Origin: Candidatus Epilinea brevis
Lineage (GTDB): Bacteria > Chloroflexota > Anaerolineae > Epilineales > Epilineaceae
Direction: 5' to 3'
Assembly: GCA_016710785.1 (NCBI GenBank)
Contig: JADJUE010000013.1
Coordinates: forward strand, 43,007 to 107,006
DNA: 64,000 nt
A program made the position numbers and the translations under genes. The notes under the pieces were generated by a model, which saw nothing but the letters and a program-made list of their open reading frames with translations, did not search any database and was not told the origin of the DNA. This document shows, one piece after another, positions 1,276 to 35,830 of this stretch. Position 1 is the first letter of the stretch, and each line of letters opens with the position of its first letter.

Positions 1276-1293
1276 ACGGGCTATCATCCGCCG

Positions 1294-5800: not shown

Positions 5801-5849
5801 GCTGGTGGTCGGGGGGCTGGAGACCGGTCGGCTGGGGCGGCGGGGATGA
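2835..5849 (+). CDS. PEP-CTERM sorting-signal protein with an N-terminal polytopic membrane region, a VIT-like domain and a vWA domain (probable exosortase cargo)
   Basis: The C-terminus VPEPETWMLLLLAAGLLWWQRRL has the PEP motif, a TM helix and an Arg cluster. The vWA MIDAS-like motif is LAVLVDRSRSMAG, followed by LVLTDD. A VIT-like segment lies upstream (FNLPESAAVSGLWLGETEDRAQAAAFRVAPRG...DPALLEQ...YRLRVLPVP). About 250 aa of hydrophobic helices sit at the N-terminus. The gene is translationally coupled to the exosortase. Confidence 0.7.
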   Translation: MIKRRLPGRSWIGWDPLGAGLFWTWNLIFVAFMLLGFGPALLPELLRTAGQGDVPWTFVGLIAVLTAVPLVALLLGYWRLRGDGRGLFALGFAVEGPLMGLLALRVFGFREANPAMALLLALMFLGLSTYLWQLLDPGIAARGREAQLARWTGLCLLALAGVYAAVWAAFYLPPFGLKMVEVARDTLAHPLEALRNYWNDLWHEGWSQVLFGLLLPPTAILTAVLVFALPVLSVGHWLAAWRRAGRDLAARFGRRQTAALGLGTAVAAVLALVLASRQPQAGAFAALERPPADTVETQALLERSGAIREGLLNAYLAGQRYRSARGEVGHIHHVYWAMSFGGRKLISDEAARQVQAAYELVAGPMYYQPAQAPAAYGTPGKASQKMAVLQSDPRRAAELYQDFFDAPIDLAERETILRTVSANWNLQQASLDRLAIDDREVLVSRRDLSIRAAADGWAELELHEVYQNQTTQQQEVVYHFNLPESAAVSGLWLGETEDRAQAAAFRVAPRGAAQQVYKEERARRVDPALLEQIGPRQYRLRVLPVPARTWRRVEGERNEPIAGPRLHLWMTFVVPARPIQAVDGIDGVDGIAAAAAGDANSEPDGPRVWPLPRLAERRNAYWDGSTAWTLPEGVAAPKGDVWLPDNLPAEPAAAARSPEGVTMGYGAWRVEARPAASAAADGDLPRPRRLAVLVDRSRSMAGRRAELDAALAQLSAAASPGSVDVILSSAAPRGEPASRVALAALRPEQLLAFGGQDPAELLRQLRDLDPDGGHDAVLVLTDDSPYLLGAANTSTTASWRGGPLWLVHLGDRLPQGYDDGTLDAVLASGGGVAGSVAEALRRWGLRQRADAAGDLLDQVDGWTFMVDRAAGAPADAGPSTPLRKAAARQLILAQIRAAGNAEVDNAERDRLQALAKAEGVVSPFSSMIVLIDERQRQRLDALEADQDRFERENDGAADEPALLAVTAVPEPETWMLLLLAAGLLWWQRRLVVGGLETGRLGRRG

Positions 5850-7270: not shown

Positions 7271-10200
7271 TCAAGGGCATGCCGTCAGCCGCCCGGCGAT
7301 GCCGCGGTAGATGTCGGCCAGGTCCTCGCCGTCGGGGGCGAAGTAGTAGTCGGCGCGGGTCGAAGCCACCGCGCCCAGCAGCTGGTCCAGCACGTCGTCC
7401 GTCTCGCCCAGGCCGATGCTGAAGATCCGCGAGCCCGCGGCCTTGGCCGCCGAAGCCTGCTTCAGCACCGTGCATTCCTGGTTGGGGCATTCCGGGGCGA
7501 TGGACCCCGGCCCGAAGGGCACACGGTTGGGCAGGCCGTCGGTGAGCAGGATCATGACCGGCTGGTTGTTGCCCAGGCGTGGCCCGCGGGCGAGCGCATC
7601 CTGTCCCTGGGCCAAGGACAAATCGATGCGCGTGCCCTGGGCGATGCGCCCCGGCAGGCGGTCGAGGGCCGCCAGCACGGCGCCGCGGTCGCCCGACAGC
7701 CCGATCTCCGTCCAGGCCGCGTCGTTGAAGCCCACGACAGCCACCCGATCCCGGGCGCCGTAGGCGTTGGGCTCCAGCTTCATCTGGGCCACGAAGGCGC
7801 GGGCCGCGTCCAAGGCCGCCGCGTGCTTGCTGCGCCCCCCGCGGGTCTCGCGGTACATGCTCGTCGACATGTCCAGCACAAGTACGGCATCGGTGAAGAC
7901 GCTCTCCGGCCGGCAGAGCAGCCGCTCGGTAAAGGGCAGGTAGATCGCGTAATGCCCGGGCGTGGGCGTGCGGGTCACGGTGGGGGAGGCCGTGGCCGAG
8001 GCCGTGACGGTGGCCGTGGCGCTCGGGCTGCTCGTGGATGTCGACGACGCTGTCGCCGTGGCCGCGGGCACCGTGGGGGTGGGCGTCAGAGCGAAGCAGA
8101 GCGACTCGATGTCCCCCAGGCCCGCCGCCTTGCCGAAGGTCTGGTTGGCGCCGGCGTAGACCGTCTCGCGGGTGACGTCGTAGCCACTGACGTTGTCGTA
8201 CCAGGCCAGACCGCCGCTGTAGATCTGGATCGGGTCGATCACGGTGGACACCACCTGGTCCAGCCAGGGCAGGGAGGCCAGGGTGCCCCAGGAGGACTCG
8301 GCATGCAGGAGGTTGTCCTGATAGAACTCGGGAACGGTCAAGGGCATGTAGCGCTCGCCGGCCTTCATGGTCAAGACCATGTCGCCGCCGGCGGCGATCA
8401 GCACCCGACTGTCGGCCTGGCGATCGCGCAGCCCCAGCACCAGGTCGCCATCCTCCCGGAACTCGATGTCCACCAACATGGGCTGGTCGATGGTCTGTCC
8501 GTCGTCCACGACGCGCGGCCAGGGGTTCCAGACCGGCTGTCGGCCGTAGTCGAGGTCCACGCGCAACACCTCGGTCATCTCGGAGCCGTCCGGCCGGCTG
8601 CGGTAGACATAGGCCGCCAGTGGGCGCGGCGCGGGGTTGTTGGTGGCCTGGGCATCGCGCGTGCGGCTGTCCACCACGCCGTGGAAGAGCCAGCCCTCCT
8701 TCCAGGCCAGGGCGAAGGGGCGGGCGTCTTCGGCCCAGTCCAGGCCGGCCGCGCCGTGGGGAAAGGCGCCTAGCAGCCGCCCGGAGGGCACGGCGAAGCG
8801 ATACACGTAGCCGTCGCTCAGGTTGACGGCGAAGAGCTGGTCGCCGGCGGTGGTCAGCTCCAGGTCGCCCAGGGCGGTGACCCCCACACTGTTGGCCGCG
8901 GCCTGGTCGAAGCCCTGGTTGAAGCGATGGCTGTCGCGGCCGGCCGGCAGCGCGGCCCAGGGCAGCACCGTGCCCCGCGCCAGGTCCACCTGGTAGATGC
9001 CACCCGGGCCCAAGGGCCCGTAACCCGCCAGGCGCTTGGTGTAGGCGCCCAGGTAGATGCGGTCGCGGGTGAGGTCCATGGCGACGCCGAAGACCGCGCC
9101 CACCTGGTCCTGGAAGGCCAGGTTGTGGTGCAGGGCCAGGTCATCGCCCACCGTGTCGTTGAGGGCCACCACCGCGGCCTGCCCCTTCAGCCAGGCCTGG
9201 CCGTAGGCGTTGCCCGAGCCATCCGTCATGGGCACGAACTGGGTGACCGCCAGGTAGGGGTTGCCGCCCTGGCAGCTGTCCTTGACGTGCTGGTAGGCGT
9301 GGGCGTAGGCGGTGGCGGTGGAGGGCGGCGGCGCCGTCGCCTTGGCCGCCGCCGTGCCGATGGCCACCGCAGTGGGCGCCACCAGGGTGAGTTGGCGGGG
9401 CACCTCGACGGCGGCCGTGGCCAAGGCGCGCAGGCGGCCGGCCTCGATGGTCGGCGCTTCGGCGGTCAGGATGGGTTGCAAGGCGGTGGCGGTCTCCGCC
9501 GCCGCCGTGCGCCGGACCTCCTGGGTGGGGGCGTGGGCCGTGCGTGTGGCCACCACCTGGGTGGCCCGCGCGGCGTCGCGGGCGGCAGCGGTGGCCGTGG
9601 CCGCCTGGGCCGCCTCCACGGTCAGGGTGACCAGCACCTCCGGTTCTACCTGGTTGCCCGGATCGCAGAGCACGGCGACGTCGCCGGCGGCCAGTCGGCT
9701 GGGAGCGGCGGCGCCTTCCAGTATCCGGCCGGAGCGCAGGCGCATGCCCGAGCCGGCGTCGAAGCTGTCCAGGGCCAGGGCGGGGCCGGGGTAACCGGGG
9801 TCCGGCGGGCGCGCCGGGGCGACCAGCCAGCCCAGGCCGGGCAGGGGCGCCACGGCGCCCCAGGCCGTCTCCAGGCCGGCGGCGTCGCTGTCCCGGAACC
9901 ATTGCGGGCTGCGTATGAGCTCCCAACCGCTGCCGCCCTCGCGTTCGCGGGCCGGGAGCAGGTCGCCCAGGCTGGCGCCGCCGGGGCAGCCCGGCTGCCA
10001 GACGCAATCCGGATCCAGGTCTACGCGGCGGTCGCGCAGGCCCACCACGGGGAGGCCCGAGGGAAGAAAGGCGATGTCGGCCACCAGCGGCTGGTCGGGC
10101 GAGCTGTTGGCCGCCTCGGTGGTCCAGGGGCCCCAGGGGGCGCCGCGCTGGTAGCTGCTGTCGGTGCCCAGGCCGAAGCGCAGCACCTGGGCCATCTCGG

Positions 10201-10966
10201 CGCCATCGACGCGCGAGCGGTACACGCGGCCTTCCAGCAGGCCGAGGACGCTGTCGTCCTCGCGGCTGTTCACCAGGCCATGGTACAGCCAGTCGCCTTC
10301 GACCCCCAGGCCGAGCATGCGCGCGTCGCGCGACCAGCGCTCGCGCACCGAACCATGGGCGAAGGCGCCCAACACCTGGCCGCTTGGCAGGCTCAGGCGG
10401 TAGACCTTGCCGTCGAAGAGGTTGGCGACGAAGAGTTGGCTGCCGTCCAGGGCCAGGTCCAGATCGCCCAGACCGGTCTTGCCGGCCCAGTCCGGGTTCT
10501 CCGCCGCGCCCGAGCCGTCGGCGGCGGCGTGCCGGTCCGGGCCGGCCGGCAGCTGGGCGAGCAGCGTCACCTGGCCGTCGGCCAGACCTACGCGATACAC
10601 GGCGCCCGGTCCGCCCGGCCCGAAGCGGCCACCGCTGCGATGCCAGGCGCCGGCATAGACAACGCCGCGCCCGCCGTCGTAGGCCAGGCCGTAGATGTCC
10701 CCCAGCTGGGCGCGTCTGGCCAGGCTGGGGGAGCGCTCGCCCAGGGACTGGCGGGCCAACAGCAGGGCGGGTTCCGTTGCCGGCTGGTCCTCGGGCCGCC
10801 AGCCGCCCTGGACGGCGACGGCCACATAGGGGTCGATGCCCTGACAGGCGGCGTTCAGGGCGGCGGCGTCCGGCAGGGGGGCCGGCTGGGCGCGGGTGGC
10901 TCCGTCCAGCAAGGCCAGGGCGAGGAGGGTCGAGGCGGCCGCAAGGCCCAGATGCCGGCTGCGCAT
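7271..10966 (-). CDS. Large secreted protein with an internal ~400-aa duplication, Thr/Pro/Ala-rich linkers and a C-terminal vWA domain
   Basis: The ATG at 10966 (MRSRHLGLAAASTLLALALLDGATRAQP, a signal peptide) is preferred over the TTG at 11005. The two N-terminal repeats each start CQG(I/G)(D/N)PY and share the motifs LGDL(D/E)L...DG.QLF..NL.DG.VYR. The C-terminal vWA domain has DMSTSM and LLTDG. Confidence 0.6.
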   Translation of the reverse strand: MRSRHLGLAAASTLLALALLDGATRAQPAPLPDAAALNAACQGIDPYVAVAVQGGWRPEDQPATEPALLLARQSLGERSPSLARRAQLGDIYGLAYDGGRGVVYAGAWHRSGGRFGPGGPGAVYRVGLADGQVTLLAQLPAGPDRHAAADGSGAAENPDWAGKTGLGDLDLALDGSQLFVANLFDGKVYRLSLPSGQVLGAFAHGSVRERWSRDARMLGLGVEGDWLYHGLVNSREDDSVLGLLEGRVYRSRVDGAEMAQVLRFGLGTDSSYQRGAPWGPWTTEAANSSPDQPLVADIAFLPSGLPVVGLRDRRVDLDPDCVWQPGCPGGASLGDLLPAREREGGSGWELIRSPQWFRDSDAAGLETAWGAVAPLPGLGWLVAPARPPDPGYPGPALALDSFDAGSGMRLRSGRILEGAAAPSRLAAGDVAVLCDPGNQVEPEVLVTLTVEAAQAATATAAARDAARATQVVATRTAHAPTQEVRRTAAAETATALQPILTAEAPTIEAGRLRALATAAVEVPRQLTLVAPTAVAIGTAAAKATAPPPSTATAYAHAYQHVKDSCQGGNPYLAVTQFVPMTDGSGNAYGQAWLKGQAAVVALNDTVGDDLALHHNLAFQDQVGAVFGVAMDLTRDRIYLGAYTKRLAGYGPLGPGGIYQVDLARGTVLPWAALPAGRDSHRFNQGFDQAAANSVGVTALGDLELTTAGDQLFAVNLSDGYVYRFAVPSGRLLGAFPHGAAGLDWAEDARPFALAWKEGWLFHGVVDSRTRDAQATNNPAPRPLAAYVYRSRPDGSEMTEVLRVDLDYGRQPVWNPWPRVVDDGQTIDQPMLVDIEFREDGDLVLGLRDRQADSRVLIAAGGDMVLTMKAGERYMPLTVPEFYQDNLLHAESSWGTLASLPWLDQVVSTVIDPIQIYSGGLAWYDNVSGYDVTRETVYAGANQTFGKAAGLGDIESLCFALTPTPTVPAATATASSTSTSSPSATATVTASATASPTVTRTPTPGHYAIYLPFTERLLCRPESVFTDAVLVLDMSTSMYRETRGGRSKHAAALDAARAFVAQMKLEPNAYGARDRVAVVGFNDAAWTEIGLSGDRGAVLAALDRLPGRIAQGTRIDLSLAQGQDALARGPRLGNNQPVMILLTDGLPNRVPFGPGSIAPECPNQECTVLKQASAAKAAGSRIFSIGLGETDDVLDQLLGAVASTRADYYFAPDGEDLADIYRGIAGRLTACP

Positions 10967-11001
10967 GCGCTGTCCTTTGTTCGCGGCTCGGCGAACCCGG
11001 T

Positions 11002-11406
11002 TCAAACGGGTTGCGGCCAGGTGGCCAGGATGATGCCCACGGTGATGCAGGCCACGGCCAGGATCATGAAGAACAGGTGCAGCAGTCCGGCGTCCTCATC
11101 CGCCAACCCGGGCAAGGCGACCTGCACCTGCGGTCCGAATCGCAGCTGGTGGAAGCGGCGCATGCCGGCCTTGCCGGCCAGCAAGCCGTAGAGTACAGCC
11201 GAGAGGCCCATGAGCGCCGGTGTGCCGCGGAGGCGGTCCGCCCAGACCAGGGCCAGAAAGGGCAGGGCGATACAGAGGAGGGCGCGGCCGGGCTGCAGGC
11301 GCAGCCGTCGGCCGTCGCGCGCCCGTTGCCAGGCCAGGGCGGCGACGGGCAAGGCCGCCAGACAGGCGATGAGCGTCAGGTAGCCGGCTCCGGCGGGAAT
11401 GGTCAT
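11002..11406 (-). CDS. Small integral membrane protein (hypothetical)
   Basis: The 134-aa product has hydrophobic helices. It overlaps the downstream large gene by 4 nt, suggesting an operon. Confidence 0.4.
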   Translation of the reverse strand: MTIPAGAGYLTLIACLAALPVAALAWQRARDGRRLRLQPGRALLCIALPFLALVWADRLRGTPALMGLSAVLYGLLAGKAGMRRFHQLRFGPQVQVALPGLADEDAGLLHLFFMILAVACITVGIILATWPQPV

Positions 11407-12861: not shown

Positions 12862-13694
12862 GCAGCGCCGATCCCCGCAATGCCACGCCCATCCACCCGC
12901 TCCTGCGGGCCTGGATCGGCGCCGAGGTCTTCTTCGCCGCCGTCGCCAGCGGCGCCACCTTCCTGAATCCCGCCCGCGCCGGCCTGACCGACCCCGCGGG
13001 CTTCGCCTGGCCCATCCCCGTGGTGGCCATGGCCGCCACCTTGGGCGTCTTCTACGCCGCCAGCTTCCTGCCCACCGTCTGGGCCTTGACGATGAAGACC
13101 TGGCAGGAGCTGCGGGTGCTGGCCATCCCGCTGGCGGTCTTCGCCACGATGATGACCCTGATGACCTTCCTTCACTGGGACAAGTTCGCCGTTGGCAGCC
13201 GGCCCTTCATCGTCTGGATGCTCAGCTATGTGCTGCCGCCACCCATCTTCGGCTGGGCCTACCTGCGCCACCAGCGGGACGCCGCGCCGGTGGGCACGGG
13301 CATCAGCCATCCCTTCGACGCCCCGACTCGCCGCTACCTGCGTCTCAACGGCGGCATCCTGGTGGCCGGGGCCATCCTGGTCTGGGTGGCACCGGCCCTC
13401 CTGGTAGACCACGCGCCCTTCAAGCTGACGCCGCTCACCGCGCGCTCCCTGGCCAACATGGTCCTGGCCGCGGGGATCACCCAGCTGTGGATGGCCTGGG
13501 AAGGCGATTGGCGGCGCGTGCGGGTGGCCTCTTTGCTGCTGATACTGGTGGCCGTGTTGCTGCCGGTGCAGCTGCTGCGCTTCCCGGAGGGCGTGGCTTG
13601 GGGCAACCCCGCGCTGCTCTTCCTGCTGGCGGATTCCGCGGTCACGGCGGTGCTGCTGCTGCGGCCGCTGCTGCGGGGACGTTCAGGCGGCTGA
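12858..13694 (+). CDS. Polytopic membrane protein (hypothetical); paralogue of the 11971-12861 gene
   Basis: The GTG start is at 12858. The helix pattern matches the previous gene, for example TFLNPARAGLTDPAGFAWPIP versus GLLFPAGLGVDIPGMAKDF. Confidence 0.5.
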   Translation: MSSADPRNATPIHPLLRAWIGAEVFFAAVASGATFLNPARAGLTDPAGFAWPIPVVAMAATLGVFYAASFLPTVWALTMKTWQELRVLAIPLAVFATMMTLMTFLHWDKFAVGSRPFIVWMLSYVLPPPIFGWAYLRHQRDAAPVGTGISHPFDAPTRRYLRLNGGILVAGAILVWVAPALLVDHAPFKLTPLTARSLANMVLAAGITQLWMAWEGDWRRVRVASLLLILVAVLLPVQLLRFPEGVAWGNPALLFLLADSAVTAVLLLRPLLRGRSGG

Positions 13695-13765
13695 ACCCGC
13701 GGTGCGTCCCGCTTCCACTCCAGCGGCCGATCCCGTCCCCGCCGGCAGCTGAACCCGCGTTCGCC

Positions 13766-14383
13766 TCAGCCGGCGACGGGTTCGGGATCCGCGGGCATCC
13801 GCCCTTCGAACACGAAGCTGGCCGTCTCCACCCGCCCGTTGGGCCGCTCGCGCTCCACCAGGTCTTCCGGCAGCACATCCACTGGGTCCGCCCGCCGTCC
13901 GACGGCGATGGCGGCCATGAGTTCATGCGTCGCCGGGTCCAAGCCCAGCTCCACGTAGGCCCGCTCCTGGTCGAAGCCGCCCATGGCGTGGGCGTGCAGG
14001 CCCAGGCGGCGGGCCTGCAGGGCCAGGCTCATCCAGGCCGCGCCGGCGTCGAAGCCGGCGTGGCGGTTGACGCGGCCGTTGCGGGCGATGGTCCGCCGCG
14101 TGGCCAGGAAGAGGAGCAGCGGGGCCTTTGGGGCCCAGTTGCGGTTGCCGCCGGAGAGCAGGTCGGCAAAGCGCGCCCTGTCTTCCGCCGAACGGGCGAA
14201 GAGGAAAACCCAGGGCTGCTCGTTGCTGCTGGAGGGCGCCCAGCGGGCGGCCTCGAAGAGCGCCGCCACCTGCGCGTCGTCCAGGGGCGCGTCATCGAAG
14301 GCCCGCGGGGACCAGCGGTCGGTGAAGGCCGGGTCGATGTCGACGGCGGCCTGGCGGGGGTTGATCGCCGGTACCACGGTCAT
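13766..14383 (-). CDS. Nitroreductase family protein
   Basis: Motifs RWSPRAF, RWAPSSSNEQPWVFL and PLLLFLATRR match the NADH/flavin nitroreductase fold. Confidence 0.75.
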   Translation of the reverse strand: MTVVPAINPRQAAVDIDPAFTDRWSPRAFDDAPLDDAQVAALFEAARWAPSSSNEQPWVFLFARSAEDRARFADLLSGGNRNWAPKAPLLLFLATRRTIARNGRVNRHAGFDAGAAWMSLALQARRLGLHAHAMGGFDQERAYVELGLDPATHELMAAIAVGRRADPVDVLPEDLVERERPNGRVETASFVFEGRMPADPEPVAG

Positions 14384-14438
14384 GCCTGGACTCCTTGGCT
14401 GCTGCGCGGGTTGGTGTCAGGTGCGGTAGCGATGCGGC

Positions 14439-16121
<1,683 letters not shown>

Positions 16122-17020: not shown

Positions 17021-20000
17021 TCAGCCGGACCGATTCTGGTGCCGAGGGCTCGGCACCGGTGACCGGGCCAGACGAAAGCCCACCGCATCCGGACGCGCGT
17101 CTGGATACGTGCCATCGCGGTACACCGCCAGGGCCAGGCTGCGGTCGAAGAGCGAGGAGCCGCCGCGCACGATCCGCCGCTCGCGGGCCGCTGCGGCGGG
17201 GTCTTCGCGACCGTCGTCGGGATCGTAGGGATAGCCGAAGGCCGGCTCATAGGGATGCTCCCCGGCCCATAAGCTTGAGGTCCATTCATCGACGTTGCCG
17301 GTGATGTCCACCAGACCCTCGGGGGTGTCGCCCGAAGGAAAGACGCCCACGGGGCTGGCCTGCCGCAGCCTTGCCTCGCTGGTGTTGGCCCAGAGGCGAT
17401 CGAAGGCATCGCCCCAGGCGAAGCGCCGGCCCGCAAGGCCGCGCGCGGCGGCCTCCCATTCCACCTCCGTCGGCAGGCGGAACGCCAGGCCGCTCTGGGC
17501 CGCAAGCCAACGGCAATAGGCGCGAGCCTCGTACCAGGACACCCCGACCACCGGCTGCGCGCGGCGGTTGTGCCGGGAATCCCGCCAATACGCCGGTTCG
17601 ACCTCCTGGTGGTAGCGCGAGCGGGTGGCGAGGATGGCCTCGAAGGCATCGTCGTCGATGGCGATCCACCCGCGCCAGCGCTCGACCGCCTCCTCCGAAC
17701 CCATCCGGCCTTCGGCCACCAGCCGTTCGAAGGCGCCCGGCTGTTCGCGAAAGCGCCGCCGCCAGTCGCGGTTGTTGGCCCGCGAGGCTTCATCGGGCAG
17801 TTCGCCGCGCTGCCAGCGGCGGCCGTCGTCGGTGTCCCACCAGCGCTCGTCTCCATAGCCGCCCGCGGCCATGAAGCAGGCCCATTCGGCGTTGGTCACC
17901 GGGGTCACGCCGATCTGGAAGGACGCGATGGGCACTGCATGCCGGGGCAAATGCGCCTCGCTGGTGCCGCTGGCTCCAGGTGCCGACCAGGCGATGGGCG
18001 TATCGTCGCCGATGGGGTAGGCTCCACCCGGGATCGTCACCAAGGGCGGCAGGAGGTAGTCGCCGTGGGGACCGACGCGGCGTGACAGGCGCGGATCGCC
18101 AAGGTCGCCCCATACAAAGCCGGCGGCGATCCGCTCGCGCAGGTCCGCCCCGGGATCGCGGCTGCGGTCCACGAGCGCCCAGCGCAGCCTGTCGAGCATG
18201 GCGCGTGGCAGGCGGTCCCGCACGTCGTCCTGCATGGCGCAGCGCCCGGCCAGGACGAGGTTGGCCTCCAAGAGACCGGCCACAAAGGCGTCCGGGGGGT
18301 CGGCCATGGCCGCCGCAAGCAGGGCGGTCTCCTCCCAACCCGTCTGAGGCAGCGGCGGCAGGGGGTCGGCGGGGTCGAGGCTGTCGAGCAGGGCCGCCAG
18401 CGATGGCTGGATCTCCGCCTCGCGCCAGGCGCCGCGTGCGAGATCCGCCGCGAGGCCAGGCGCCGCTGCCAGCCGCCGTGCCGCGAAGTACTCCTGCAAC
18501 AGCTGGTGCACGTAGAGCAGGGTGTCTGCCGCTTCGTCCTCGTCGAGCACGGCCAGAGCCTCGCCGGCGGCGACGATGCGCTCGTCGTCGTCGCAGTCCA
18601 GCAGTGCCAAGGCATCGTCATAACGGATGCGCACCTGTGACGCCCCGCCGTCCGCGCGCCCGCGCTGCATGCCAAAGGCGAGGTCGGCAAGCTTGGGCAG
18701 GAGCGGACCGCGCTCCGGCAGATCCCAGGACGAGCGCCACACGCCGCTGGTCAGGCGCCGTCTGTCCCGGGCATCGACGAGCGCGCCTGGTTCGAAGAGC
18801 GGATGGCCCCGCTCCACCTCGCGGCGCAAGGCTTGCCGGACGAAGCCGGTGAACAAGGCCGCGCGTCCGACAGGCATCGCGCCTGTGGCTTCCACCTGCT
18901 CGACGAGCAGCGACAGGAAGTAAGGGCTTCGGAGCAGCTCCAGCTGCGGCGATCCCTCGACTGTCTGCCAGACCTCGCGCCAACGTGCCGGGCAGTTCTG
19001 CACCAGGAAGTCGCGCACCTGCCGGTCGGCCAAGGGTTCGATCCTGACCTGCGGTACGCGCAAATCGGGTGTCGAGAGGGGCTGACTGTAGTCGAGGCCG
19101 CGGCAGCTGAAGATGACGCGGTTGCCCGGGCGCTCCGCCGCCAGCCGCTGCAGCCAGATCTTCCACAGCTGCACCCGTGCGTGCAGGTCCTGTTCGCCGG
19201 TCGCCGGCATCTCGTTGAGCGCGTCGAGCAGCAAGATGAGCCGGCCCTGGCCAAGGAGATCTTTGAAGGGCGGAAGCTCCGGGTTGCGGGCGGCCCAGCG
19301 ATCGGCGAGCCAGCGGTCAGGCGGTGGCGGGGGTTTGCCCGGATCCGCCGCGTACTGATTGAGGCCGATGAAGAAGGTCAGCGGCGCGCGGTCCGGGTCA
19401 CCGGCGCGCAGGGCGTCGACGGCTAGGTCCAGCTCCAGCCGACGCAGCAAGGTGCTCTTGCCGCTGCCCGGGGGACCCAGCAGGACGAGTGCCGGATCCG
19501 GCAAGGCGGCCAGGAGCGCCTGCAGGTCTCCGCCGCGTTCGGCTGCTTCCTCCCAGCGACCTTGCGGTGCCTGCTCCCCCTGATCGAGGAGCAGGGTCAG
19601 GCCCACGAAGCGCTTGTCGAGGCGGTAACGCGGCTGGCTCCATTCGGCGACCCGGCCGAGACGGTACTCCCGCTGGCTGGCTGGCTTGTGCCGCGCCGCG
19701 GCCAGTACCTGCTCCTTGGTCAGCACGACCTGGCCCTGATCACCGCGCAGCACCTGGGAAAGGGCCTCGAAAGTCTCGGGCACCGTCCGGTTCAGCACCG
19801 TGGCGCCCGAATTGGGCGAAGGGTCCGCGCCGGTCTCGCGCCAGTCGACGACCATGACGCGGTCTTCCGCCCCGATGGCGCCGGCGCTGCGCAGCGCGCG
19901 CGTGTCGTCCGGCAGGCCGGCGATGACCACCTGGGCGATCCGTTCGGCCTGCCCCAGGTCGCGCAGGCGGTGCTCGCCCAGGTCGCGAAAGCGCAGGCCT

Positions 20001-20452
20001 GGAAGGGGCTCCAAGGTCTCGAGCAGAGCGCGCGACACCGCTGAGACCAGGAGCTGTGCGCCGTTGGCGGCGGCCTCGATCCGCGCGCAGCGGTTGACCG
20101 GTGGACCGAAGTAGTCCCCCTCGCGCTCGGCGGCCTCGCCGGTATGCAGGCCCATGCGCACCTTGATGGGCGGGAAGCCGTCGCCGAAGCGCGTCCACTC
20201 CTCCGATGTCACGGCCCGCTGGGCGTCCACGGCCGCTGCCAGGCCGGCGCGCGGGTCGCGAAAGGCCACGCAGAACGCGTCGCCGACAGTCTTGAACACG
20301 AAACCGCCCTGCCGCTCGACGGCGGCACGCAGCAGCGCGTCATGACGCTCGAGGGCGGCGCGCATGGCCGCTGGGTGGCGGTCCCAGCGCTCGGTGCTGC
20401 CTTCGATATCGGTGAAGAGGAAGGTGACGGTGCCGGATGGTGGCTGCGTCAT
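17021..20452 (-). CDS. Multidomain STAND protein: N-terminal class III adenylyl/guanylyl cyclase domain, NACHT-type NTPase, C-terminal FGE-sulfatase (SUMF1)-like domain
   Basis: Cyclase motifs are FLFTDIEGSTERW, KTVGDAFCVAF, RMGLHTGE and NRCARIEAAANG. The P-loop is LLGPPGSGKSTLLRRL and Walker B is RLILLLDALNEMP. FGE-like motifs are VTNAEWACFMAAGGY, GVSWYEARAYCRWL, RGGSSLFD and AVGFRLARS. The start was set at ATG 20452; an alternative ATG lies at 20521. Confidence 0.7.
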   Translation of the reverse strand: MTQPPSGTVTFLFTDIEGSTERWDRHPAAMRAALERHDALLRAAVERQGGFVFKTVGDAFCVAFRDPRAGLAAAVDAQRAVTSEEWTRFGDGFPPIKVRMGLHTGEAAEREGDYFGPPVNRCARIEAAANGAQLLVSAVSRALLETLEPLPGLRFRDLGEHRLRDLGQAERIAQVVIAGLPDDTRALRSAGAIGAEDRVMVVDWRETGADPSPNSGATVLNRTVPETFEALSQVLRGDQGQVVLTKEQVLAAARHKPASQREYRLGRVAEWSQPRYRLDKRFVGLTLLLDQGEQAPQGRWEEAAERGGDLQALLAALPDPALVLLGPPGSGKSTLLRRLELDLAVDALRAGDPDRAPLTFFIGLNQYAADPGKPPPPPDRWLADRWAARNPELPPFKDLLGQGRLILLLDALNEMPATGEQDLHARVQLWKIWLQRLAAERPGNRVIFSCRGLDYSQPLSTPDLRVPQVRIEPLADRQVRDFLVQNCPARWREVWQTVEGSPQLELLRSPYFLSLLVEQVEATGAMPVGRAALFTGFVRQALRREVERGHPLFEPGALVDARDRRRLTSGVWRSSWDLPERGPLLPKLADLAFGMQRGRADGGASQVRIRYDDALALLDCDDDERIVAAGEALAVLDEDEAADTLLYVHQLLQEYFAARRLAAAPGLAADLARGAWREAEIQPSLAALLDSLDPADPLPPLPQTGWEETALLAAAMADPPDAFVAGLLEANLVLAGRCAMQDDVRDRLPRAMLDRLRWALVDRSRDPGADLRERIAAGFVWGDLGDPRLSRRVGPHGDYLLPPLVTIPGGAYPIGDDTPIAWSAPGASGTSEAHLPRHAVPIASFQIGVTPVTNAEWACFMAAGGYGDERWWDTDDGRRWQRGELPDEASRANNRDWRRRFREQPGAFERLVAEGRMGSEEAVERWRGWIAIDDDAFEAILATRSRYHQEVEPAYWRDSRHNRRAQPVVGVSWYEARAYCRWLAAQSGLAFRLPTEVEWEAAARGLAGRRFAWGDAFDRLWANTSEARLRQASPVGVFPSGDTPEGLVDITGNVDEWTSSLWAGEHPYEPAFGYPYDPDDGREDPAAAARERRIVRGGSSLFDRSLALAVYRDGTYPDARPDAVGFRLARSPVPSPRHQNRSG

Positions 20453-20537
20453 GTGGCCCTCGGGTCCCGATCGTTGCGGCGGTGCTCCCGGCGGATCGCG
20501 GTGCGAATTCCGATGGGGCACGGCCGAGCGGTCCTGC

Positions 20538-21902
20538 TCAGGGACCTACGGCCGCGGCGAGGGCTGGCGCGAAGCGGCCCAGCCCCCCGTTCAGGTCGCG
20601 GCGATCCGCCGGCTCGACATGCCGCAGCAGGCTGCGGTAGGACACGCAATGGTGCAAGGGCAGGATGATCTCGTTGAGCCTCCAGGCCTCTTCCAGGCGG
20701 TCCCGCGAAACCAAGGACTGCCAGACCTCCAGGTAGACGGCCCGCCATTCGGCTGCCAGTTCCGGGTCCTCGGCCCTGAATGGAACCAGGAGATCCACCA
20801 TCGGCGGTCCGATGCAGGCGTCGGTCCAGTCGATAAACACCGGAGTGTCGCCGCGCAGCAAGGCATTGCCGAAATGCAGGTCGCCATGCACCAGGGCCGC
20901 GGGCAGGGCGAGCGCGGCCAGGCGGTCGATGGCGCGGCGGATCTCTCCTTCGGCCCGGCGTAGGCGCTCCAGTTCAGCGGGTTCAACCGCCGCCGCGGTG
21001 AGCGGATCCGCCAGCAGCGGCGACACTTCGTCCGCCAGCCCTTCCAGGCGCCGGTCGATGCAGCCGGCGGCCAACAGGCCATCCACCTGGCCGGCGCTGG
21101 CCAACTGCAACGCGGCATGGTCGCGGGCCAGGCGCAGGGTGAGCGCGCGGCGCTCGGTGGCGGAGAGCGACTTGTACTGGATGAGGGTCGGCCCGTCGTC
21201 CTCCATGAGCAGCCAGCCGGGTCCGGGCCGCGCGGCCAGCACCCGCGGCATGCAATCCGGAAAGCGCCGGGCCAGGTCCGCGGTCATGCGCGCCTCGTCG
21301 ACGAAGAGCGGCGGCGCGGGGGCGGCTACCTTGAGGTAGGCCGATCCCTGATCGGTCTCCTGCTGGTACACAGCGGCGAGGCACCAAACCTTCACCGGAC
21401 GCGGCTCGCCGCGGGGCGCCCGGCCGGACCGCGCCAGCGCGTCGTCCATCCAGCCGCGCAGCTCGCTCCACCAGCCAGAGCGTTCGACGGCCCAGGGCGG
21501 CCTGAACGTCGGGGTCGGGCGCTCGGCCAGCGCCGGGAAGAGGTCTCGCATGGCCGAGCGCGTCCATTCGTCCGCGATTTCCGCCGTCGCGGCCGGGCCG
21601 ATCCAGTGCCAGCCGGCGGGGGCCCGATCCGGCGCTTCGCCCACCAGTTCCGCCAGGAACAGCACCCGCCGCTCCGCTAGGGCAGCGTCGCCGGATGGAT
21701 CCGGCTCATCCTTGGCGGCCAGCCGCCGCAGCAGCCGGACCGGTCGCCCGAGCGCGGCCGCCAAGGCGTCGCCCAAGGGCCCATGCTCGGCATGCCAATG
21801 CGCGGTTGCGAGGCGGGCCGTGGGCAGTTCCACGGCGTCGGCCAGGGCCAGCACCTGGTCCTGGTACGGGTGCAGGACTGCGGCGATGAGGGTGGTAGGC
21901 AT
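20538..21902 (-). CDS. Phosphotransferase (APH/ChoK-like kinase) family protein
   Basis: ALVHGDLHFGNALL is the Brenner motif and VFIDWTDACIGPPMVDL the DxD region. The gene lies immediately upstream of, and on the same strand as, the cyclase-NACHT-FGE gene. Confidence 0.6.
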   Translation of the reverse strand: MPTTLIAAVLHPYQDQVLALADAVELPTARLATAHWHAEHGPLGDALAAALGRPVRLLRRLAAKDEPDPSGDAALAERRVLFLAELVGEAPDRAPAGWHWIGPAATAEIADEWTRSAMRDLFPALAERPTPTFRPPWAVERSGWWSELRGWMDDALARSGRAPRGEPRPVKVWCLAAVYQQETDQGSAYLKVAAPAPPLFVDEARMTADLARRFPDCMPRVLAARPGPGWLLMEDDGPTLIQYKSLSATERRALTLRLARDHAALQLASAGQVDGLLAAGCIDRRLEGLADEVSPLLADPLTAAAVEPAELERLRRAEGEIRRAIDRLAALALPAALVHGDLHFGNALLRGDTPVFIDWTDACIGPPMVDLLVPFRAEDPELAAEWRAVYLEVWQSLVSRDRLEEAWRLNEIILPLHHCVSYRSLLRHVEPADRRDLNGGLGRFAPALAAAVGP

Positions 21903-24456: not shown

Positions 24457-25470
24457 TTACCAGGCGCCCGGCGTCGGCCCGTCCTCGACCTTGTTCGGCA
24501 CCGAGTTCCGCGCGCCCAACAGCACGAGGGCCAGCAGGGCGACCAAGGGGACGAGGACCAGGATGGGCGAGGGAGCCATGGCGAGTTTGGGACCGCCGCC
24601 GGTCTGGGGTAGGCCCTTGGGCTGTTCGACCACGGTGGAGGTCTTGACGGCGTAGATGCCCATGTCCTGCTCGGCGGGCATGGCGGCCTTGAGCACCAGG
24701 CCCAGCGGCGCATAGACCTCCAGCGCTGAGCTGCCCAGGTTCTTGATCACCAGCGTTCCGCTGCCGTAATACGGCGCGTCGCCGGGCAGGGCCTTGGGGG
24801 CCGAGGCTTCCATCCAGCCTTCCACGCTCGCCGAGACCTTGCCATCACGGATGGCTTCGTCAAGCGGCACGCCCTTGCTGCTCAAGGCGGCGGTGCTCTG
24901 GTCCTTGGCGCTCGCCGTCAAGGCCTTGGCCCCGCTGAGGTCCACGTCGGTCTCGTAGTAGCCGTACTTGCCGGCGATGGCGTTCCAAACGGCCAGCTGG
25001 GTCTGCAGGACATCGCTGCTGCCGGTGCCGCTCAAGGCCGCGGCCTTCAGCACCTTGACGGCATCATCGGTGGTCCGACCGCTGGAAACGTTCACGGACT
25101 TGGGGAAGGGCTCCCCGAAATTCAAGCAGAAGGCGTTGAAGGGCAGTCGGGCCTCGCCTCCCGCGGGGATGCTGACGCTGGCTTCGCTGACGACGGTCTG
25201 GCGCGCGGCGGTCACGACCGCTGCGGCGGCCGTGGTGGGCGCGACCATGACCGGAGCGGCGGCGGTGGTGGGGGCGACAGCCATTGTTGGAGCGATGGCC
25301 ACGGTAGGGGCAACGGTCATTGTTGGAGCGACGGCCACGGTCGGGGCGATGGTAGTGATCGGCTCGGTGGCCATCGTTGGTGCGGCGGTCTGAGCGTCGG
25401 CGATGGACATGCCACTGCTGAGCGTGAAGGCGGCCAACAGGCCACCGAGCAGAAGGGAGCGACTGGTCAT
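24457..25470 (-). CDS. Cell-surface protein with APTMAV-type tandem repeats and an LPXTG-like C-terminal sorting signal
   Basis: GGAGG sits 9 nt upstream of ATG 25470. MTSRSLLLGGLLAAFTLSSGMSIADA is a signal peptide, followed by APT(M/V)A(V/I) repeats. The C-terminus is LPQTGGGPKLAMAPSPILVLVPLVALLALVLLGARNS. The remainder of the 726-aa tracked ORF is antisense to the hydrolase gene and was discarded. Confidence 0.5.
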   Translation of the reverse strand: MTSRSLLLGGLLAAFTLSSGMSIADAQTAAPTMATEPITTIAPTVAVAPTMTVAPTVAIAPTMAVAPTTAAAPVMVAPTTAAAAVVTAARQTVVSEASVSIPAGGEARLPFNAFCLNFGEPFPKSVNVSSGRTTDDAVKVLKAAALSGTGSSDVLQTQLAVWNAIAGKYGYYETDVDLSGAKALTASAKDQSTAALSSKGVPLDEAIRDGKVSASVEGWMEASAPKALPGDAPYYGSGTLVIKNLGSSALEVYAPLGLVLKAAMPAEQDMGIYAVKTSTVVEQPKGLPQTGGGPKLAMAPSPILVLVPLVALLALVLLGARNSVPNKVEDGPTPGAW

Positions 25471-25815
25471 GGGAGGGACCTCCGTAAGGGCTAAGGCGCA
25501 AGGATGGATGCATGAGCCCGGACCGGCGTCCAGGCGCGCGACAAGGCTCCTGCGGAGCCCCATGGCGATGGTATCACCGCGGCTGAGGGCGGACAAAGGC
25601 CATCTGGCCGATCTTCCCCTCCACCGCATGGGCAGATCGCAGGCCCGACGACTGGCGGATGGAGTCAGGGGACAGGTCTCGAGCGCTATCATGTCGGAGC
25701 AGGGTTCGCCCTTGGATGTTGCATCGTTGCCTTGGCCAGCCAACTGGATGGGGCAACGCGATGGATCATCCCACCGCTGACCACCCATCTCCCCCAGGAA
25801 GAAAGTGAGCATCGT

Positions 25816-26625
25816 ATGAGTCAAGTCCAGTTGGGCGACATCCGCATGGCGGTCGAGTTGAAGGGTGATGCGGGGATGCCGCTGGTCCTGCTGCACGGCT
25901 TCCCGCTGGACCACGACATGTGGCGGCATCAGATCGACGCCCTGTCGGCCAGGGTCCAGGTCATCGCGCCCGACCTGCGCGGGTTCGGGCAGAGCGACCT
26001 CGGCAGCGGCCCCGTGACCATGGAGCGTATGGCGGATGACATCGGCGCCCTCCTGGATGGCCTGGGTGTCAGCGAGCCTGTGGTGTTGGCGGGATTCTCG
26101 ATGGGCGGCTACGTGGCGTTCCAGTTCTGCAAGCGCTTTCCCGATCGGGTGCGGGGCCTGATCCTCTGCGACACGCGCGCCGTGGCCGACAGCCCCGAGG
26201 CCGCAGCCGGGCGGGCCCAGACAGCGGCCAAGGTGCTGGAACATGGCGCGGGCGTGACGGCGGAAGCCATGCTGCCCAAGATGTTCGGGCCCGGGACCGC
26301 TGCCGCGAACCCGGAGCTCGTCGCCCAGACGCGAGCGATGATGCTGGCCTGCCCGCCCGCGGGTATCGCCGCCGCCCTGCACGCCATGGCCGCGCGCAGC
26401 GACGCGCGAGCCCTGTTGCCGACCCTCCGCGTGCCATGCCTGGTGCTGGTGGGCGAGCATGACCCCATCTCCAGCGCGGCGGAAATGCGCGAGATCGCCG
26501 AAGCCATCCACGGGGCCGACTACCATGTCGTGCCGGAAGCCGGACATCTGGCGCCGATGGAAAAGCCGGCGGAAGTGAACGCCGCCATCGAGCGCTTCAT
26601 CGCCGGCCTGCCTGCGGTTGGCTAG
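25816..26625 (+). CDS. Alpha/beta-fold hydrolase
   Basis: [26 protein letters not shown] (nucleophile elbow GxSxG) and a C-terminal [12 protein letters not shown]. Confidence 0.7.
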
Positions 26626-26635
26626 GAGTCGCGCC

Positions 26636-27265
26636 ATGACCCATGCGCAGTTCCACCACTTCCGACCCCATCCCTGGCACGGGCTGCCCGCCGGCCCCCA
26701 GGCTCCGGAACGGGTTTCGGCCTACATCGAGATCACGCCCTTCGACCTGGTGAAGTATGAGGTGGACAAGGCCAGCGGGTACCTGCGCGTGGACCGCCCG
26801 CAGCGAACCTCATCGCAGCCGCCCAGCCTATATGGTTTCATCCCGCGCACCTATTGCGGTACGCGGGTCTGTGGTCTGAGCGAGGGTTCGCAGCGCGGCG
26901 ACGGTGATCCGTTGGACATCTGCGTCATCAGCGAGCGGCCGATCGCGCGGGCCGAGGTGCTGTTGACCGTTCGGCCCGTCGGCGGTCTGCAGATGATCGA
27001 TCACGGCGAAGCCGACGACAAGATCGTCGCCGTCCTGGAAGGCGACCTGATCTGGGGAGCGGCACAGACCATCGCCGAGATTCCGGCCATCCTGCTGGAG
27101 CGCCTGCAGCATTACTTCCTGACCTACAAGCTGGTCCCCGGTCAACAAGAGGCCGTGGCCATCCGGCGGGTCTATGACCGCGACCACGCCGCACGGGTCA
27201 TTGTGGCGGCGCAGGAGGACTACCTGGAGCAGTTCGGCAACGAGGCGTCGTCAACCGAGCTCTGA
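26636..27265 (+). CDS. ppa: Inorganic pyrophosphatase (family I)
   Basis: AGGAG RBS. Motifs [33 protein letters not shown] and DGDPLDICV match soluble PPase. Confidence 0.85.
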
Positions 27266-32639: not shown

Positions 32640-33746
32640 CTACCCGAACCACCGACCCACGCCCGCCGCACCCAACCCGTCCGCCAGCAGCCGCAGCTTC
32701 TTCTCCGTCTCCACCCAGGTGATGGGCGAGAGGCCCAGGAGTTCGCGGAGGTCGTCGGGGGCGAGGCCCGAGCGCCAGGCGCGCAGGGCCGCGGTCCAGC
32801 GCAGGGTCTCGAAGCTGACCTCGTCACCCAGACCGGCGGCCCGTGCCAGGTCGGCCAGCACGTACTCCAGGTTGCGGTCCGTCCATGGGAAAAGGCGCTC
32901 GGCCGTTCGGTAGCGCAGCAGGTAGGCCGGAAAGAGGCCGGACACCTTGGGCCCAACCGGCACGCGGCGCTCCTTGCGGGCGAAGCGCGGCTGGTCGTAG
33001 CGCACCAGGATGCTGGGCGGGTCCGCATCCAGGTTGAGGTCATCCGTACGTAGACGCACCAACTCACCCTTCTTGAGTCCCGTGTCCAGGAGCAGGCGCA
33101 GCATGAAGGCCGGACGCGGGTCGCGGGCTTCACCGCTGGCCAGTCCGTCCGCGACGGCGAGCAGCGTGGCCGCCTCCCTGTCCGTCAGCACCCGGGCCAG
33201 CGGCGCCTGCGCTCTCCTGTGCACCAGCGTGAGGGCGATGTCTCTTGGCAGAGCCCCGGCTGCGTGCAGCCAGCCGAAGAACACCTTCAGGGTCGTCAGG
33301 CGACGGGCGTAGGTCTTGGGGCTGCAGGGTTCGCCGCGGTACGCCAGCATCCAGGTCAGGAAACGGTTCAGGTCGTCGGTGCTGATGGCTGCCAGCGCCT
33401 TGTCGGGGCCTAGGAACTCTGCTAGCAGCCGCAGGTCGCTGGCGAAGGCGCGCCGCGTGTTGACCGTCTTGGCCAGGCGCCCGAGATGCTCGTCGAAGGC
33501 CGAGGCGGCGCCCTGCAGGCTGCTGGCGGCCGTCGGTATGGGGAGCGGCGCGAGGTAGGGGGAGGGGCTGGTGGCGGTGGAAACCACTGCGTCCGGATCA
33601 CCCTCGCGCGCCGCGGGTAGCGGTTCCTCGTCACCGCCGACCGCGGCGCCCGAGGCTGGTGCCACGGTCGGCAACGACGCAGCCGACGCCGCCTTGGACG
33701 GTGTGTCGAACAACGAGAGCTGTGCTTCGAGCGAACGTTTGTTCAT
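32640..33746 (-). CDS. Tyrosine site-specific recombinase (XerC/XerD-like) with an Ala/Ser/Pro-rich N-terminal extension
   Basis: The N-terminal SAM-like region has TRRAFASDLRLLAEFL. The C-terminal catalytic region has RLLLDTGLKKGELVRL and ETLRWTAALRAW, followed by LRELLGLS. The start is ATG 33746 (MNKRSLE). Confidence 0.65.
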   Translation of the reverse strand: MNKRSLEAQLSLFDTPSKAASAASLPTVAPASGAAVGGDEEPLPAAREGDPDAVVSTATSPSPYLAPLPIPTAASSLQGAASAFDEHLGRLAKTVNTRRAFASDLRLLAEFLGPDKALAAISTDDLNRFLTWMLAYRGEPCSPKTYARRLTTLKVFFGWLHAAGALPRDIALTLVHRRAQAPLARVLTDREAATLLAVADGLASGEARDPRPAFMLRLLLDTGLKKGELVRLRTDDLNLDADPPSILVRYDQPRFARKERRVPVGPKVSGLFPAYLLRYRTAERLFPWTDRNLEYVLADLARAAGLGDEVSFETLRWTAALRAWRSGLAPDDLRELLGLSPITWVETEKKLRLLADGLGAAGVGRWFG

Positions 33747-33804
33747 GCGGGCAGAATAGCAGGCGTCGGTTGGATTGGGAAGCCGGGCCTGCTCCGGCGC
33801 GACC

Positions 33805-35553: not shown

Positions 35554-35830
35554 CGGCCGTCCGGACTGCGGGCGATCGCCGCTGGGGCCGCGGCGGTGGG
35601 GCCGCGGCGGTCGGGACGGTCGGGGCGGTCGCCCGTGGGGCGTCCGGACTGGGGACGATCACCGCTGGGACCGCGGCGGTCGGGGCGGTCGGGTCGGTCG
35701 CCCATCGGCCGCCCGGACTGCGGGCGATCGCCGCCGGGACCGCGGCGGTCTGGACGGTCGGGACGGTCGCTCGTCGGTCGTCCGGACTGGGGCCGTTCAC
35801 TACCAGGACCGCGGCGGTCTGGACGGTTGC
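35270..35830. repeat. Coding tandem repeat array (60/66-bp units, ~9 copies) inside the rsmB 5' region
   Basis: Units such as catcggccgtccggactggggacgatcaccgctggggccgcggcggtcgg... recur with a 60-bp period and encode a 20-aa GDRPDRRGPSGDRPQSGRPM-type repeat. Confidence 0.6.

Follow-up and report, generated by a model that had tools for sequence, protein, structure and literature searches.

A predicted NLR-like receptor of Chloroflexota that joins an adenylate cyclase to a NACHT switch and a sensor bearing the footprint of a diversity-generating retroelement

Introduction

What is the function of a bacterial protein that carries a class III nucleotidyl cyclase at one end, a formylglycine-generating enzyme (FGE)-sulfatase-like (FGS) domain at the other, and a NACHT-type P-loop NTPase between them, and does the phosphotransferase gene beside it belong to the same system? 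These questions are raised by a gene at 17021..20452 on the minus strand (stop codon included), encoding 1143 aa, within a 64,000-nucleotide stretch of Candidatus Epilinea brevis (contig JADJUE010000013.1, positions 43,007 to 107,006), hereafter termed the window. Our answer, to which we assign a probability of roughly 0.55, is that the gene encodes a stand-alone receptor of the bacterial NACHT (bNACHT) type, an NLR-like member of the STAND proteins whose output would be cyclic AMP (cAMP). The evidence comes from the domain architecture, from relatives that exchange the cyclase for other effectors, and from a hypervariable sensor surface whose residue spectrum matches that written by diversity-generating retroelements (DGRs).

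Systems of this general kind have been described computationally. STAND/NACHT NTPase-FGS counter-invader systems with N-terminal effector-associated domains (EADs) or effectors, and with frequent DGR association, were delineated by Kaur et al. (2021; PMC8195603). The FGS domain has been termed an "antigen-receptor-type" sensor by Kibby et al., who also list cyclic nucleoside monophosphate (cNMP) cyclases among bNACHT effectors (bioRxiv 10.1101/2022.07.19.500537). DGR-diversified NACHT/nSTAND-CLec targets, none characterised experimentally, were reported by Dore et al. (2024; PMC10907252), and a 2026 survey again found FGE-sulfatase sensors on STANDs (PMC13581612). FGS-sensor NLR-like receptors are thus widely predicted in multicellular bacteria, with none characterised in the literature searched, and the same search found no experimentally studied cyclase-NACHT protein.

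Gene boundaries and domain architecture

On the minus strand no open frame is longer than that at 17021..20521, which begins with a GTG at 20521. This upstream start was dropped in favour of the ATG at 20452 on the evidence of homologue N-termini: in more than 100 homologues the segment GTVTFLFTDIEGST is preceded by only a few residues, and the downstream ATG is therefore the preferred start. A Shine-Dalgarno-like GAGGG site stands 5 nt ahead of this ATG, within the 85-nt spacer (20453..20537, minus strand) that separates the receptor start from the stop codon of the preceding kinase gene. Residue numbers refer throughout to the 1143-aa protein and equal those of the 1166-aa open reading frame (ORF) minus 23. 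The protein is 100% identical to MBK8542016.1, from an Ardenticatenia (Chloroflexota) metagenome-assembled genome (MAG), and the G+C content around its gene is ~70%. A preliminary description of this DNA, prepared from the letters and the ORFs, had proposed a 1143-aa product uniting cyclase, NACHT and FGE-like modules. The length is borne out by the ATG at 20452, every motif quoted in that description is found in the protein (FTDIEGST, GDAF, NRCARIE, GPPGSGKST, LLLDALNE, RGGSSLFD and GFRLARS), and the union of the three modules is supported by Pfam, in which all three domains score above the gathering cutoffs, by an AlphaFold2 model built from a 30-sequence alignment (mean pLDDT 81.5), and by Foldseek comparisons. 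Residue conservation and entropy were computed on 105 full-length family members, to which the counts below refer.

The N-terminal module is a class III adenylate cyclase catalytic domain spanning ~aa 5-190 (19883..20440, minus strand), as delimited by Pfam (Guanylate_cyc, E 4.6e-15, aa 4-164), alignment to Ma1120, Foldseek and conservation. Canonical class III spacing is kept through the motifs FTDIEGST, KTxGD and DYFGxxVNxxAR. The metal-binding Asp residues are retained (D15 in 105/105 sequences, D58 in 103/105), as are the transition-state residues N120 and R124, both invariant, and the adenine-specifying pair K54 (96/105) and D113 (97/105). These latter two align with the K and D of Ma1120, an enzyme with a "KDA to EGY" specificity mutant in the PDB (5d0g). 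When the model was compared with the PDB by Foldseek, its N-terminus matched the Ma1120 and Rv1900c adenylyl cyclases with a target TM of ~0.9 and an rmsd of ~2 A, and in sequence the domain is ~34% identical to Ma1120-type catalytic domains. The canonical residue set, together with the correspondence of K54 and D113 to Ma1120, indicates that the domain is most likely an active adenylate cyclase of the ATP-type.

The centre of the protein is occupied by a NACHT P-loop NTPase core at ~aa 321-480 (19013..19492, minus strand), defined by Pfam, conservation and Foldseek. It is preceded by a pre-NACHT region at ~aa 220-320 (19493..19795, minus strand), recognised from the entropy profile and tblastn, of which the segment 261-300 is highly conserved and common to TIR-NACHT-FGS relatives. 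Both nucleotide-binding motifs are well defined: Walker A (GPPGSGKST, aa 326-334, 19451-19477 on the minus strand) has G329, G331, K332 and T334 invariant in the 105 sequences, and Walker B (LILLLDALNE, aa 405-414, 19211-19240 on the minus strand) has D410, N413 and E414 invariant. Across the family the two motifs are kept, almost without exception, as GPPGxGKST and LLLDALNE. That the module is a NACHT domain and not a generic AAA domain, as initially proposed, follows from the Pfam NACHT match (E 2e-9, 37.9 bits against a cutoff of 26.7, aa 322-455) and from the structural match of the centre of the model to the NLRP3 NACHT (7alv, E 7e-9), an alignment of 597 columns that exceeds the length of the NTPase core. 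After the core, the AlphaFold2 secondary structure displays a helical and winged-helix-like region at ~aa 481-785 (18098..19012, minus strand), which presumably comprises NOD regulatory subdomains and a helical spacer.

The remainder of the chain, ~aa 786-1131 (17060..18097, minus strand), is the FGS domain, a C-type-lectin fold assigned from Pfam, PDB matches and the AlphaFold2 model. The Pfam FGE-sulfatase match is strong (E 6.9e-46, best stretch aa 943-1130), and in the model its N-terminal part is rich in beta structure, with helices inserted at ~875-945. By Foldseek the C-terminus resembles ToxD, FGE and the EgtB C-domain; by sequence, the PDB matches are EgtB, OvsA and FGE. TvpA is a further, weak PDB match. 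The FGS lectin-fold module is treated as a sensor in the literature (PMC8195603; bioRxiv 10.1101/2022.07.19.500537), and we adopt this view here for reasons given below, where the enzymatic alternative is considered.

A family with exchangeable effectors

A protein search recovered more than 100 full-length homologues with 52-83% identity and the same three Pfam domains. Their sources, where named, are Caldilineae, Ardenticatenales and Anaerolineae MAGs (Anaerolineales among them), and a scan of GTDB species representatives agrees with the protein search on this distribution. The genes occur repeatedly within genomes: clusters of 2-3 paralogues lie within ~13 kb at five loci (L004, L006, L010, L011 and L090), and at least six distinct family proteins are deposited under the name of one Caldilineae bacterium. 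At two Chloroflexota loci a second repeated ORF family stands beside the receptor paralogues (L004 3628-7858 and 15703-18018; L006 7885-9561).

Beyond this family lies a sister clade in which tblastn matches start only at residues ~192-277 and extend with 41-54% identity over ~220-1130, that is, over a NACHT-FGS part that carries other N-terminal domains instead of the cyclase. These are TIR_2 at five loci (L018, L019, L023, L024 and L025), EAD8 plus TIR_2 at two (L016 and L017), SEFIR at one (L022) and Pkinase at one (L013). Some family members carry effectors in addition to the cyclase: P0013, P0059 and P0064 (locus L089 10001-13846) are TIR_2-cyclase-NACHT-FGS double effectors, and a cyclase-TCAD9-NACHT-FGS arrangement of ~1560-1630 aa is found in P0112 and in tandem genes of a Caldilineae MAG (L011, 4579-9468 and 9992-14710). 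The exchange of effectors on a constant switch-sensor chassis is a signature of NLR-like conflict systems (Kaur et al., PMC8195603; Kibby et al., bioRxiv 10.1101/2022.07.19.500537), and the replacement of the cyclase by TIR, EAD8 plus TIR, SEFIR or Pkinase domains sustains the NLR-like logic that had been suspected from the window protein.

A hypervariable sensor surface with a DGR signature

Nowhere does the family vary nearly as much as in its C-terminal 30 residues, where the mean entropy is ~2.5 bits as against ~1.1-1.3 elsewhere. This hypervariability and an adenine footprint define a DGR-type variable region (VR) of the FGS domain at aa 1096-1127 (17072..17167, minus strand). Its scaffold is formed by invariant or near-invariant residues (R1096, G1097, W1100, A1107, R1112, P1117, R1120, G1125 and R1127), between which the entropy exceeds 3 bits at positions 1101-1106, 1111, 1113-1116, 1119 and 1121-1124 and reaches 2.5 bits at 1118.

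A parallel to this pattern is found in the TIR sister clade, where the last ~130 nt of the gene are duplicated as a template repeat (TR) 150-330 nt downstream. Mismatches between the two copies fall almost wholly at TR adenines (15/16 in both L019 and L024, 18/19 in both L018 and L021). The TR of L024 is followed by an RVT_1 reverse transcriptase (RT) gene (13509-14600), homologues of which are present in L018-L021, with a weak partial match in L023. The cassettes beside the TIR-NACHT-FGS genes (L019 4258-4700; L024 12528-14600; L018 6408-6865; L021 12479-14414) establish that these four loci are canonical diversity-generating retroelements. In L021, a single TR lies between two convergent target genes.

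When the sister-clade TR is set against the cyclase family, its AAC codons line up exactly with the hypervariable columns there. The residues K, E, Q, M and W are out of reach of AAY codons that mutate at adenines; they account for 3.7% of the residues in the 14 TR-AAC columns and for 22.6% in 22 equally variable control columns. Two further columns follow the template as well: at 1104, 64% of residues belong to the set {Q,R,L,P} expected from the TR codon CAG, and at 1111, 67% belong to the set {Y,F,C,S} expected from TAC. Such an adenine-mutagenesis spectrum marks the diversity of the cyclase-clade binding site as the probable product of a DGR, at least historically.

In the lineage of the window, the VR appears to be frozen. 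A DGR acting in cis was considered and rejected: a repeat search of the 64-kb window revealed no second VR copy or TR, blastn of the VR against cyclase-clade loci L001-L011 detected no TR, neither the window nor these loci contain an RT homologue, the gene lists of L089 and L090 include no RT, and a degenerate VR pattern scan of the metagenome collection returned the VR itself as its only match. Among 13 full-length population variants that differ by 0-58 substitutions, none has a substitution within 1096-1127, and in an orthologue of 83% identity only 2/32 VR residues differ, so that conservation is higher in the VR than across the remainder of the protein. In addition, 6/17 of the hypervariable codons end in G, unlike those of AAY-templated VRs. 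The missing TR and RT, the invariant VR and the G-ending codons together argue that the VR is frozen and that the predicted receptor has a fixed specificity in this lineage. The most divergent population variant, P0146, carries all of its 58 substitutions in residues 441-1079 (window ~17216-19132), leaving cyclase, P-loop region and VR unchanged, a pattern that looks like a recombination mosaic.

Proposed mechanism

STAND/NLR proteins oligomerise upon ligand binding and nucleotide exchange, and the active sites of class III cyclases are formed across a dimer interface, so that these enzymes are active only as dimers. In the mechanism that we propose, the variable surface of the FGS domain would bind a specific ligand, either an invader molecule or a self or "guarded" molecule. 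Ligand binding would free the NACHT module for nucleotide exchange and oligomerisation, and oligomerisation would in turn juxtapose the N-terminal cyclase domains; given the dimer requirement of class III cyclases, this step would switch on cAMP synthesis. The envisaged target of the cAMP is a receiver whose gene would lie at another place in the genome, unlinked to that of the receptor. With respect to origin, the receptor would share its NACHT-FGS chassis with proteins that bear TIR or EAD effectors and undergo DGR hypermutation, and would have arisen from that chassis, the cyclase clade having retained the mutational footprint while its receptors became germline-fixed paralogues.

From this we tentatively extend the proposal to the family as a whole, in the form of a conjecture that we hold to be possible though doubtful. 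The Chloroflexota paralogues might constitute a germline-fixed repertoire whose specificities were written by a DGR and then frozen under purifying selection, marking a passage from an "adaptive-like" to an "innate-like" state. All members of such a repertoire would signal through cAMP, a common alarm or developmental cue able to spread along the filament.

Several observations weigh against our preferred reading and should be borne in mind. Activation by induced proximity is proposed by likeness to NLR, Avs and TIR assemblies, combined with the cyclase dimer requirement. The near-invariant W1100 is Ser in the window protein and R1108 is Leu, and both changes are kept in the 83% orthologue; they could signify an altered or degenerating sensor surface. 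The Fisher p of ~5e-65 for the residue footprint ignores the kinship of the sequences. The receptor stands among housekeeping and cell-envelope genes and not in a defence island, a Pfam scan of 30 window ORFs found no gene for a cNMP-binding or CRP-like receiver, and PADLOC reported no matching system, only a weak partial PycC match and a trivial P-loop match. The NCBIfam EruA match reaches 40 bits, where the cutoff is 1000.

Immune or signalling receptor

The trigger of the receptor could be an invader, in which case its function would be immune, or a self or environmental cue, in which case it would be one of signalling. The relatives built on the same chassis favour the first, and the genomic context and frozen VR favour the second; the probability of roughly 0.55 given above is that of the immune reading. 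The foremost alternative holds that the gene encodes a non-immune receptor, a domesticated NACHT-FGS sensor that tunes cAMP to a fixed endogenous or environmental ligand in filamentous Chloroflexota, with a role in, for example, development, cell-cell signalling or metabolism and none in defence against phages or other invaders. We judge this alternative to be credible but on balance unlikely. It would account readily for the housekeeping and envelope neighbourhood, which is shared by the window and several homologue loci with their thiamine, copper-resistance and RecQ genes, for the stable synteny in close relatives, and for the apparent purifying selection on a VR that is invariant in the population and better conserved than the rest of the protein in the 83% orthologue. 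PADLOC gave no strong match, housekeeping functions commonly use cAMP as a messenger, and regulators that combine a cyclase with a STAND module exist in mycobacteria. It is harder to reconcile, however, with a chassis that in sister clades carries TIR, EAD8 and SEFIR effectors and undergoes DGR diversification, features that are hallmarks of conflict systems (PMC8195603, PMC10907252). Nor does it sit easily with the many paralogues per genome with differing VRs, with members that add TIR to the cyclase, or with the homologue that lies amid toxin-antitoxin modules.

The genes around the receptor in the window include those for an exosortase, PEP-CTERM proteins, a 1244-aa VWA protein, an ABC-F ATPase, a nitroreductase, DoxX, CARDB and CAP proteins, a pyrophosphatase, PolA, an integrase, RsmB, Lon, a LonC-like protein and PFK; no defence genes and no sulfatases were found among the window ORFs scanned with Pfam. 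Elsewhere, one homologue is located amid toxin-antitoxin modules and others amid thiamine, RecQ or copper-resistance genes. All-against-all clustering of ORFs from 12 cyclase-clade loci yielded no conserved neighbour, only shadow ORFs, and no sulfatase gene occurs in any orthologue context looked up, a result that favours the reading in the preliminary description. The receptor gene is a self-contained unit whose context speaks neither for nor against an immune role.

The neighbouring phosphotransferase

Upstream of the receptor on the same strand, at 20538..21902 (-), lies a gene for a 454-aa APH-fold (RdoA/aminoglycoside-kinase-like) phosphotransferase that starts from an ATG at 21902. The preliminary description had identified it as an APH/ChoK-like phosphotransferase and had paired it with the receptor. 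The identification stands, with a Pfam APH match (PF01636, E 1.3e-19, 71 bits against a cutoff of 23.2) and intact catalytic motifs, namely HGDLHFGN for the HxDxxxxN loop and IDWTD with the metal-binding D. The pairing is not supported. A two-gene system, with the receptor, its ligand or a sensed small molecule as substrate of the kinase, is suggested by the shared strand, by the 85-nt gap without a terminator-like hairpin and by the intact motifs, and the pair is kept in three close relatives, L001 and L084/L085, where the receptors are 82-83% and the kinases 70-77% identical to those of the window. But it is only there that the kinase adjoins the receptor, and in these relatives synteny extends over the entire CAP-APH-receptor-DoxX block, which deprives the adjacency of independent weight.

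More distant comparisons point the same way. By tblastn, no kinase homologue exists in the 24 other family and chassis loci L002-L025, and the gene lists of L089 and L090 contain no such gene. The kinase family itself has 24 detectable members, and its homologues keep other company: at 57% identity gyrB lies next to, and downstream of, the gene, at 52% a polyketide-cyclase-like gene adjoins it, and at 34% an aminotransferase gene does so. A further argument for partnership might be sought in the APH-like TCAD9 domain embedded in P0112 and the two L011 genes, which shows that APH-fold kinase domains are recruitable to the NACHT-FGS chassis. The window kinase, however, shows no detectable relationship to TCAD9 outside the catalytic loop (BLASTP E 0.19; Pfam TCAD9 E 0.0027 over 31 residues) and belongs to a different APH family. 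The two-gene system is therefore improbable in our estimation, and the upstream kinase most likely adjoins the receptor through recent synteny, as a bystander and not as a conserved partner.

Diversification in trans and an enzymatic FGS domain

Two further alternatives concern the sensor. The gene might be an active DGR target whose TR and RT reside elsewhere in the genome and act in trans, an arrangement with precedent among FGS genes (PMC8195603, PMC7159879) and one that would suit the family-wide adenine-mutagenesis footprint at the VR positions; our view of the genome, moreover, spans 64 kb only. Ongoing mutagenesis is nonetheless at odds with a VR that is identical in all 13 population variants, including the one with 58 substitutions elsewhere, and nearly identical in the 83% orthologue, with the G-ending codons, with the pattern scan that returned the VR alone, and with the missing RT and TR in the window and the cyclase-clade loci. 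We accordingly consider diversification in trans very improbable.

The other alternative, that the C-terminal domain is a SUMF1/EgtB/PvdO-type enzyme catalysing formylglycine or sulfoxide formation, takes its name from the NCBI entry for MBK8542016.1 ("SUMF1/EgtB/PvdO family nonheme iron enzyme") and can draw on the strong Pfam FGE-sulfatase match and on the PDB sequence matches to EgtB, OvsA and FGE. The FGE Cys pair is absent, however, residues 981-1143 containing no Cys at all (the last is C980), and the segment corresponding to this pair and to the FGE active-site region is hypervariable across the family, with Cys occurring sporadically. Pfam detects no DinB-type iron-binding or His-triad domain ahead of the FGS domain. 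Against the NCBIfam equivalog models the scores are 101.8 bits for EgtB (cutoff 360), 89.4 for SenA (420) and 60.5 for OvoA (400), the EgtB, SenA, OvoA and PvdO models falling 4- to 11-fold under their curated cutoffs. With the Cys pair missing, the equivalog scores below threshold and no sulfatase gene in any context examined, an FGE/EgtB-type enzyme is rejected as having a negligible probability. The FGS domain is therefore read as a non-enzymatic sensor, as had first been proposed, and the public name is misleading for the whole receptor family.

Other features of the window

Several features at a distance from the receptor deserve mention. An exosortase (EpsH) gene, followed by a gene for a 1004-aa VIT-domain protein with a PEP-CTERM sorting signal, occupies 1114-5849. 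The 1244-aa VWA protein encoded at 7271-11406 has its VWA domain only at aa 1039-1233, the ~1000 N-terminal residues being without a Pfam match, and is preceded by a 134-aa ORF with a stop/start overlap. At 24457-26637 (-) a 726-aa ORF, called as a gene in the syntenic L001 and without a Pfam match, overlaps an alpha/beta-hydrolase ORF at 25732-26625 (+; Pfam E 5.9e-34); probably only one of them is a real gene and the other a shadow ORF. A tyrosine recombinase gene of the phage-integrase family is located between polA and rsmB (32640-33902), and a direct-repeat array at 35261-35857, with 9-11 copies of ~60-69-nt units that are 73-92% identical, lies over both the 5' end of the RsmB/NusB-like gene (33805-35553, minus strand) and its upstream flank. 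Beyond roughly 36-38 kb, the G+C content of the window falls from ~0.70 to ~0.65.

Significance and comparison with known systems

The preliminary description had suggested that the gene represents a novel system. This was overstated, because NACHT-FGS proteins with N-terminal effectors and bNACHTs with cNMP cyclases are already catalogued (PMC8195603; bioRxiv 10.1101/2022.07.19.500537; PMC7159879) and the kind had been predicted computationally. What the present analysis adds is the Chloroflexota cyclase clade, the combination of a DGR footprint and a frozen VR, and a case against the kinase being a conserved partner. With a predicted cAMP output that is easy to measure and a fixed sensor, these receptors would offer a tractable entry to what FGS sensors recognise, and the family could show whether NACHT oligomerisation switches on a dimer-dependent enzyme. 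The DGR-mutated TIR clade and the frozen cyclase clade also form a natural comparison that bears on the hard-wiring of hypermutated receptors.

The closest known systems are the STAND/NACHT-FGS systems, with which the cyclase clade shares an N-terminal effector, a NACHT switch and a single C-terminal FGS sensor, as well as exchangeable effectors, several diversified copies per genome, and filamentous or multicellular hosts. The clade differs in its class III adenylate cyclase effector, in its concentration in Chloroflexota, in the lack of a linked EAD partner or DGR, and in its housekeeping contexts. With the DGR-diversified NACHT-CLec targets it has in common the C-terminal VR scaffold RGGxW-x6-ARAAYR-x4-P-xx-R-x4-GFR and a matching residue footprint; it departs from them in having a cyclase in place of a TIR or peptidase effector, a static VR, and no TR or RT near the cyclase-clade genes examined. 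Within the family, the modules shared with the cyclase-TCAD9-NACHT-FGS proteins are 55-58% identical, and the window protein lacks the ~400-aa TCAD9 insert between cyclase and NACHT.

Among nucleotide-messenger systems, Pycsar, CBASS and Pucsar (bioRxiv 10.64898/2026.08.12.744502) likewise employ a cyclase-made messenger upon threat. In the window protein, sensor and cyclase are instead combined in one polypeptide with no linked gene for a cNMP-binding effector, and the cyclase has ATP-type specificity residues, K54 and D113, and not those of the pyrimidine-cyclase type. Membership in Pycsar was considered and rejected: the PADLOC match of the cyclase domain to PycC is partial (E 1.2e-5 over 103 residues), there is no conserved neighbour, and the scanned ORFs include no cNMP-binding gene. 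The Ma1120 and Rv1900c cyclases have the same fold and key residues, which in the window protein belong to the N-terminal module of a 1143-aa STAND protein and not to a small or lipase-fused cyclase.

Finally, the mycobacterial proteins Rv0386, Rv1358 and Rv2488c combine an adenylate cyclase with a MalT/NB-ARC-like STAND module, TPR repeats and a LuxR-type DNA-binding helix-turn-helix (HTH). They follow the same design as the receptor described here, namely an N-terminal class III cyclase, a STAND switch and a C-terminal interaction module, whereas the window protein has a NACHT domain and an FGS sensor with a DGR-type VR and is devoid of an HTH. As both the NTPase clade and the sensor differ, the link between the two groups is by analogy one of design and not of family membership.

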